Positions 14,259-15,079 of a stretch of 40,938 nt of DNA are shown here, one piece after another. Position numbers and translations under genes: made by a program. Position 1 is the first letter of the stretch. Each line of letters starts with the position of its first letter. The notes under the pieces are model-generated. The model was not told the DNA's origin and ran no database searches. It saw only the letters and a list, made by a program, of their open reading frames with translations. The stretch is from a virus (lineage: Duplodnaviria > Heunggongvirae > Uroviricota > Caudoviricetes), in the IMG/VR virus record IMGVR_UViG_2879742664_000009; one strand, written 5' to 3'.

Positions 14259-14866
14259 CAGAGCCCGCACCAACGCTGAAAATCAAAGACCCGCACTATG
14301 ATGAAAAGCACCTTGCTATTGAGCAGGCGCTGACTCAGGGGCAGACGAAACATCCTGTGTTTTATCAGGATGAAGTCGACATCGACCTGAATACGAAAAT
14401 CGGCGTGGACTGGATGCCCAAAGGGCAACAGAAACGCATCGCTACGCCGGGACAGAACCTGAAGCATTATCTGGCTGGCGCACTGCACTCAGGTACGGGA
14501 CGGGTTCACTAGGCCAGTGGCAGCAGCAAAAGTTCTGATTTATTTATCAGTCTGTTAGAGGCATTACGGCGTAGATATCGGCGGGCGAAAACCATCACAC
14601 TGGTGGCGGATAACTACATCATCCATAAAGGCCGTAAAGTGGAGCGATGGCTGGAAGAAAACCCGAAGTTCCGGTTGCTGTTCCTGCCGACGTATTCACC
14701 GTGGCTGAATCCGATAGAGCAACTTTGGTTATCGTTACACAAGACCATAACGCGAAATCATCAGTGCCGGTATATGTGGCAGATACTGAAACAGGTAACG
14801 CAGTTTATGAATGCTGCTTTACCGTTTCCGGGTAATCAACACGGTATGGCCAAAGTGGAGCGGTAA
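14259..14866 (+). pseudogene. IS630-family transposase, 3' remnant with in-frame stop
   Basis: Translation gives ...DEVDIDLNTKIGVDWMPKGQQKRIATPGQN...GTGRVH* then ...TITLVADNYIIHKGRKVERWLEENPKFRLLFLPTYSPWLNPIEQLW..., the IS630/Tc1-type DDE C-terminus. The 5' part is removed by IS629. Confidence 0.75.
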
Positions 14867-15079
14867 TATGCGAAGCTATTTAGATTCAGTTTGAATCTCA
14901 GCCCTGACATTCATTCTTTACCGACGTTCCATTAGCCCAAATCTGAGTATATAACCTCAATTCAACTGACTAAATTTAACACAATATCAATGACAAATGT
15001 CTTTACCATTGGTACATACAATTGCAAAATCACCATCTCTAAGCAATAAGACTACGCATATTAAAGTGAGTTATATTAA

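Follow-up and report, generated by a model that had tools for sequence, protein, structure and literature searches.

Organisation of the oacC locus

The window, the whole stretch of 40,938 nucleotides that was analysed here, contains the gene oacC (15080..16228, plus strand), which encodes a 382-aa O-antigen O-acyltransferase (Acyl_transf_3; Pfam PF01757, E 8e-33). The OacC protein shares 72% amino acid identity with OacB of S. flexneri and Sf101, and the gene is followed by phage tail genes on the minus strand. Upstream of oacC, a complete IS629 element of the IS3 family, 1310 bp in length (12949..14258, plus strand), forms the left boundary of a fragment of an IS630-family insertion sequence (14259..14880, plus strand). 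The fragment is a pseudogene and comprises the 3' 622 bp, or 54%, of an element of 1153 bp. On the same strand it is followed at 14881..14883 by the duplicated TA of the target site (14881-14882) and the last base, G, of the 5'-CTAG-3' target (14883), and then by an A+T-rich spacer of 196 bp (14884..15079) that reaches from the end of the insertion sequence to oacC. A perfect 7-bp palindrome, AGATTCA-gtt-TGAATCT, is present in the flanking prophage DNA at 14882..14898, as described in the earlier note on this DNA.

This arrangement is ordinary and already known. The pair "IS629 and IS630" was drawn upstream of oacC of S. flexneri serotype 6 in 2014 (PMC4206707, Fig. 4), where oacC was defined in the contigs AKMW01000058 and AERO01000013, and the transposase is a RefSeq pseudogene. 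The window is 99.9% identical in nucleotide sequence to these two contigs across IS629, the IS630-family fragment and oacC, and the junction between the two insertion sequences is identical.

The surrounding region is rich in insertion sequences. Five copies of IS629 were found in the 41 kb, at 4020-5329 (minus strand), 12949-14258 (plus), 29879-31188 (plus), 36105-37414 (minus) and 39207-40516 (minus), and they are mutually 98.1-100% identical. Matching flanks (GTTAC on both sides) were observed only at 29879-31188; the other four of the five copies are without a target duplication. This pattern suggests an extensive IS629-mediated rearrangement of the prophage region. Further IS3-family pieces are located at 9159-9977 (minus), 10970-11809 (minus), 11836-12174 (minus) and 37578-38417 (plus), among them two copies of an orfB reading frame with an rve domain, 279 aa each. 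The 112-aa reading frame at 11836-12174 presumably corresponds to an OrfA like that of IS911. In S. flexneri 1485-80, the same IS911-like piece (window 11659-12210) adjoins an uninterrupted copy of the IS630-family element.

The chromosomal genes mrp (ParA/NUBPL type) and metG have on their left a phage reading frame resembling a TMP_3 tape-measure protein (window 2758-4014 on the minus strand, and 5489-8763) and on their right an SfII-like tail module, so prophage fragments flank a short stretch of chromosomal backbone. The prophage pieces probably came to lie on both sides of the backbone by an IS-mediated inversion or translocation. In E. coli D217-5, the IS630-family element has on its immediate left a 174-bp stretch that recurs about 2.2 kb farther left, close to paoD and a LysR fragment (L001:755-928 compared with L002:2949-3122 and with L001 ~2951-3124). 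This repeat may be of att or tRNA origin and mark the site of prophage integration.

The fragment encodes the C-terminal half of an IS630-family transposase

In the fragment 14259-14880, the transposase gene is preserved from about codon 144 through its stop. Translation of 14261-14869 in a single frame gave EPAPTLKIKDPHY...HSGTGRVH*ASGSSKSS...GMAKVER*, interrupted by an amber codon and terminated by the natural TAA stop at 14864-14866. Two short open reading frames of 51 aa (14357-14512, ending at the TAG) and 87 aa (14603-14866) were listed in this region. Both halves of the transposase matched the Pfam domain DDE_3 (E 2.8e-4 and 1e-19), and the C-terminal 117 aa (14513-14863) scored 107.6 bits against the NCBIfam model NF033545, "IS630 family transposase", which has a curated cut-off of 100 bits. 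The intact homologue of E. coli C9 scored 241.8 bits with the same model. With Pfam, DDE_3 and helix-turn-helix domains were found in the transposase.

By inspection, the candidate catalytic codons are unbroken, with D at 14369-14371, D at 14609-14611 and E at 14717-14719, and the spacing from the second candidate D to the E is 35. From their position in the motif, these codons are predicted to specify the catalytic residues. The fragment and its full-length copies together show the transposase type, a D-D-E motif with a spacing of about 35, short terminal repeats, an insertion at TA/CTAG and the length that mark the IS630 family. The full-length core of 1153 bp with one reading frame of 343-345 aa fits the family's size of about 1.1-1.2 kb and its single transposase gene.

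The similarity to full-length copies begins only at 14259, and the left 531 bp of the element are absent here and everywhere else in the window. A transposition-competent insertion sequence is not present, and 14259-14880 is immobile and inert as a transposon because it has one end only and no intact transposase, its reading frame carrying both the TAG and a frameshift. The earlier note had described an IS630-family transposase remnant with a C-terminus that is intact in motif, an in-frame amber codon and a 5' part that is missing beyond the IS629 junction. All of this was confirmed by the domain matches, the candidate D, D and E codons, the translation and the alignment to full-length copies; the frameshift had been overlooked.

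Lesions of the transposase gene

The nonsense codon at 14510..14512 (plus strand) was identified by alignment to the copy of C9 as a TAC>TAG change. Residue 228 is a tyrosine in the C9 and Salmonella proteins, and the C9 codon is TAC. The same TAG was found in E. coli D217-5 and in S. flexneri CCH060, CDC 796-83, K-315 and 1485-80, and the 51-aa reading frame that ends at it is identical to annotated proteins of S. flexneri CDC 796-83 and K-315. The alignment also revealed a 1-nt insertion in a CCC run at 14264..14266 (plus strand), which is CC in the intact copies. It shifts the reading frame 5 nt past the IS629 junction. The effect of the frameshift was seen when P0006 (157 aa, ending in ...RARTNAENQRPAL) was compared with the C9 protein P0004. 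The insertion is also present in the uninterrupted copy of D217-5, for which the RefSeq comment reads "frameshifted; internal stop".

Since both the amber codon and the frameshift occur in copies that are not interrupted by IS629, they predate the IS629 event. The 227-aa database reading frame P0015 has the amber codon and not the frameshift, which weakly hints that the amber codon may have arisen first. This order is weak because P0015, the one sequence from which it is drawn, is of a C9-like type, in which the amber codon may be of independent origin.

The amber codon simply inactivates the gene. A programmed read-through or a truncated regulatory transposase could be imagined from its in-frame position, and nothing else speaks for it; in C9 the codon is TAC, the residue is a tyrosine in both the C9 and the Salmonella proteins, and the copy is also frameshifted and in the window has no start codon, N-terminus or left end. 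We give a functional TAG virtually no credence.

A different lesion was observed in E. coli C9 (L002:4570-4580) and in IMGVR_UViG_2718218308_000003 (L013:300-310). Here 47 bp corresponding to window 14836-14882 are deleted from a transposase reading frame that is otherwise uninterrupted, with neither the amber codon nor the frameshift. Both the stop codon and the entire right inverted repeat are lost, and the deletion stops exactly at the terminus of the insertion sequence and its TA (GGGTA|AGATTCAG). It could be the result of slippage between two TA dinucleotides or the footprint of a failed one-ended cleavage. The read-through product of 343 aa is annotated by RefSeq as an intact transposase.

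The right end and the target site

The right end of the element was determined from five independent contexts: the E. coli/S. flexneri chromosome, a Salmonella plasmid, a Klebsiella plasmid, IS630 of S. sonnei and ISEc33. The earlier note had left the true right end to an alignment with IS630 and related elements; this alignment placed the last base at 14880, in a terminus that clearly resembles the ends of the IS630 family. The element ends with ...GCGAAGCTATT at 14880, followed by TA and the G of CTAG. When seven right ends were aligned, they were conserved up to ...GCTATTTAG and unrelated beyond, and across the five contexts the similarity stopped at ...CTATT-TA-G, which corresponds to window 14883. 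The core of the right terminal inverted repeat, TAATATGCGAAGCTATT (14864..14880, plus strand), includes the TAA stop codon. The terminus of the window copy, GCGGTAATATGCGAAGCTATTTAG, can be compared with that of IS630, GCGGTATTAAGCGCAGCTATTTAG.

In the full-length copy of D217-5 (L001:3467-4625), both ends are present as 20-nt arms with C-TA...TA-G flanks. The left arm CTAAATAGCTTCGCAAAATA and the right arm TAATATGCGAAGCTATTTAG, which include the CTA/TAG, are 90% complementary and lie 1119 nt apart, and the element is found in the setting ...ACATAC-TA-[1153 bp]-TA-GATTCAG.... C9 and the S. flexneri strains K-315 and 1485-80 carry the element at this very site. The C-TA...TA-G flanks were seen in all five independent contexts; the window keeps the right TA-G only. 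These flanks agree with the TA duplication that is known for the family and with the preference of IS630 for CTAG as its target (Tenzen & Ohtsubo 1991, as cited in PMC2170065).

A search for the empty site GACATACTAGATTCAGTTTGAATC gave 0 matches in the viral contigs and 0 in the genome contigs. With the flank alone, two of the viral contigs were matched, both of which already had the insertion sequence. From the flanks, a single ancestral insertion can be reconstructed, with ...ACATACTAGATTCAG... as the probable sequence before the insertion.

The junction with IS629

The IS629 element at 12949..14258 contains an IS3-type orfA (13003-13329, plus strand) and orfB (13326-14216, plus strand) and is delimited by a pair of 26-nt inverted repeats at 12948-12973 and 14234-14259, with the terminal inverted repeats TGAACCGCCCCGGG.../...CCCGGGGCGGTTCA. 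Its right inverted repeat ...GGGGCGGTTCA ends at 14258, and the similarity to full-length copies of the IS630-family element starts with the next base. E. coli copies that bear the annotation "IS3 family transposase, programmed frameshift" match this IS629 over its full length at 98.6-99.2% identity, and IS629 copies of O157 agree with its terminal 42 nt at every base. The four other IS629 copies of the window match it at 98.1-99.9%.

A match to O157 that continued past the IS629 end (88-90% over 65-69 nt) was rejected as evidence of a shared junction, as it consists of 100% identity up to the IS629 end and a gapped chance extension. In the one match that was inspected, from O157 strain 9000 (L032:1501-1567, aligned to window 14217-14285), about 17 of the 22 bases to the right of IS629 agreed, with 2 gaps. 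The resemblance looks like a chance extension picked from many copies and not like a common junction.

The 3 bp to the left of this IS629 are TGG and those to its right are CAG, so there is no 3-bp target duplication. For comparison, a clean target duplication, CTG, flanks an IS629 copy of E. coli RM14721. The window IS629 was read as a recombination or deletion junction because its flanks do not match. We infer that the junction arose by an insertion of IS629 followed by a recombination between two IS629 copies or by an adjacent deletion.

In S. flexneri CCH060, the right IS629 junction is base-for-base identical to that of the window. The left flank in CCH060 is an invasin-like gene (GGG), and in the window it is a fragment of a DUF4132 gene downstream of mrp-metG. 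The differing left flanks imply a further IS629-mediated rearrangement, either in the window strain or in CCH060.

Relatives of the IS630-family element

The full-length copy of E. coli D217-5 matches the fragment at 99.8% identity (L001:4001-4622). The closest relatives outside this lineage are copies on Salmonella enterica virulence plasmids (e.g. pSE92-0392, WP_001121399.1) and on Klebsiella pneumoniae IncF plasmids, which are about 90% identical to the fragment in nucleotide sequence. Over the whole element the identity is 88.4% for the Salmonella plasmid copy and 88.6% for the Klebsiella plasmid copy. They share the ends AATAGCTTCGCAAAATAG.../...TAATATGCGAAGCTATT and the CTAG/TA target with the window lineage, and the Salmonella transposase of 345 aa is about 88% identical to that of the window lineage. 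The plasmid copies are intact, with both ends and an open reading frame, whereas the window copy is cut short, interrupted by the amber codon and frameshifted. NCBI and UniRef name these transposases at the family level only, as "IS630 family transposase". By the usual ISfinder convention, two copies belong to the same insertion sequence above roughly 90% nucleotide or 95% amino acid identity. With its divergence of about 10% in nucleotides, the chromosomal lineage of E. coli and Shigella could be a separate isoform or a separate insertion sequence.

IS630 of S. sonnei and ISEc33 belong to the same family. The copies that were read have 1153 bp between the flanking TAs, the CTAG/TA signature, one DDE transposase of about 343 aa and closely similar ends, AATAGCTGCGCGGAATAG.../...TATTAAGCGCAGCTATT. 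However, the window element is only about 63% identical to them in amino acids and 69-70% in nucleotides. An assignment to IS630 proper was therefore rejected (69% nucleotide identity over 540 aligned bases, about 63% in amino acids); the IS630 copies used for this comparison were annotated "IS630-like element IS630 family transposase". The label "IS630", which PMC4206707 and some GenBank annotations give to this locus, is thus loose, the element being by sequence comparison a different member of the family.

The palindrome and the region upstream of oacC

The IS630-family sequence is carried by only 3 of 5426 complete E. coli genomes. oacC was found in 3 of the 5426 E. coli genomes, in the S. 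flexneri contigs and in two IMG/VR contigs, and in each of them the insertion sequence ends 197 bp upstream of the gene, on the same strand. The spacer 14884-15079 is identical in all copies of the locus and presumably contains a putative oacC promoter; a promoter scan of this spacer returned no site of at least 9/12. The regions upstream of oacB (72% amino acid identity) and of a homologue with 50% identity shared nothing with 14884-15079 and contained no IS630-like sequence, and the palindrome was not found upstream of oacB or of more distant acyltransferase homologues.

The palindrome itself was compared with block shuffles of the window. Perfect 7-bp inverted repeats with a 3-nt loop occurred 5 times in the window, with 2.5 +/- 1.6 in the shuffles, and those with loops of 3-8 nt occurred 34 times, with 16 +/- 5 in the shuffles. 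The palindrome is no commoner than chance allows. On the plus strand, its minimum free energy is -6.4 kcal/mol (z = -0.6), an ordinary value that was equalled or bettered by 45 of 200 shuffles; on the minus strand, z was -1.8. A terminator scan made no call at the palindrome, and a permissive Rfam search of 14200-15100 gave no match. The conservation of the palindrome is uninformative for or against a function because all copies sit in near-identical DNA.

The earlier note had suggested that the palindrome may be part of the terminal repeat of the element or a terminator, and neither suggestion was borne out. A place in the terminal repeat, or a role as a subterminal binding site of the transposase, is prompted by its start within 2 nt of the element's end and its overlap with TA/G, but the palindrome shares only the A and the G of the TA/CTAG target with the region that is similar among the copies, which ends at 14883. 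Past ...CTATT-TA-G the Salmonella, Klebsiella, IS630 and ISEc33 copies diverge completely, and no counterpart of the palindrome is seen at the left end of the full-length copy, which makes such a role extremely improbable. An intrinsic terminator that halts the transcription of the transposase before oacC would lie suitably, on the coding strand 16 nt past the transposase stop, and a 7-bp hairpin can form. However, only 2 of the 7 pairs of the stem are G-C pairs, it is followed by CAGCCCTGAC without a T-run, the fold is no better than that of shuffled sequences (z = -0.6) and the scan was silent. The intact plasmid relatives also have no such hairpin beyond their end, and we regard a terminator as highly improbable.

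It could also be argued that the palindrome or the adjoining IS end regulates oacC as an operator or a part of its promoter, and that the remnant was kept for the acetylation of the O-antigen. The constant distance of 197 bp wherever oacC was found would fit this proposal, and so would the C9 copy, which lost 47 bp of the IS end yet retained the palindrome. All copies come from one insertion, however, and since they descend from it, the constant linkage to oacC is expected without any function. The lack of a called promoter-like site in 14884-15079, of anything similar upstream of oacB and the more distant homologues, and of an excess of the palindrome over chance also speak against a regulatory role, and we consider it unlikely. 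The same low expectation applies to the more particular proposal that the right end, the palindrome and the A+T-rich spacer together supply or modulate the oacC promoter. If true, a dead insertion sequence would control how the Shigella O-antigen is O-acetylated in a serotype 6-specific manner, and this would be why it was retained. The palindrome is target DNA beside the insertion point and outside the insertion sequence, and we treat it as a chance sequence.

Origin of the remnant and its meaning

Taken together, we read the locus with a probability of about 93% as the decayed right half of an IS630-family insertion sequence that was cut by IS629 and lies upstream of oacC, with the palindrome as a part of the flank. 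In the sequence of events that we propose, an element of 1153 bp with one DDE transposase gene and terminal repeats of about 17 nt would have inserted once at a 5'-CTAG-3' site, duplicating the TA. This site lies where an SfII-like prophage ends, 197 bp before the start of oacC. The inserted copy would then have decayed by the change of a tyrosine codon (TAC) to the amber codon (TAG) and by the 1-nt insertion. Later, IS629 would have landed inside this copy, and a recombination between IS629 copies or an adjacent deletion would have removed the left 531 bp, which contained the left inverted repeat along with the promoter region and the codons for the DNA-binding N-terminus of the transposase.

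Remnants of insertion sequences are abundant in Shigella genomes, and the significance of this one is very small; it is ordinary genome debris. The present analysis adds the exact right end of the element, 14880 plus TA. It also adds that the element differs from IS630 proper, to which it is related at about 63% amino acid identity, and is closest to the element of the Salmonella and Klebsiella plasmids, and that the junction probably reflects an IS629-mediated rearrangement. These details may aid the annotation or typing of S. flexneri serotype 6 genomes.
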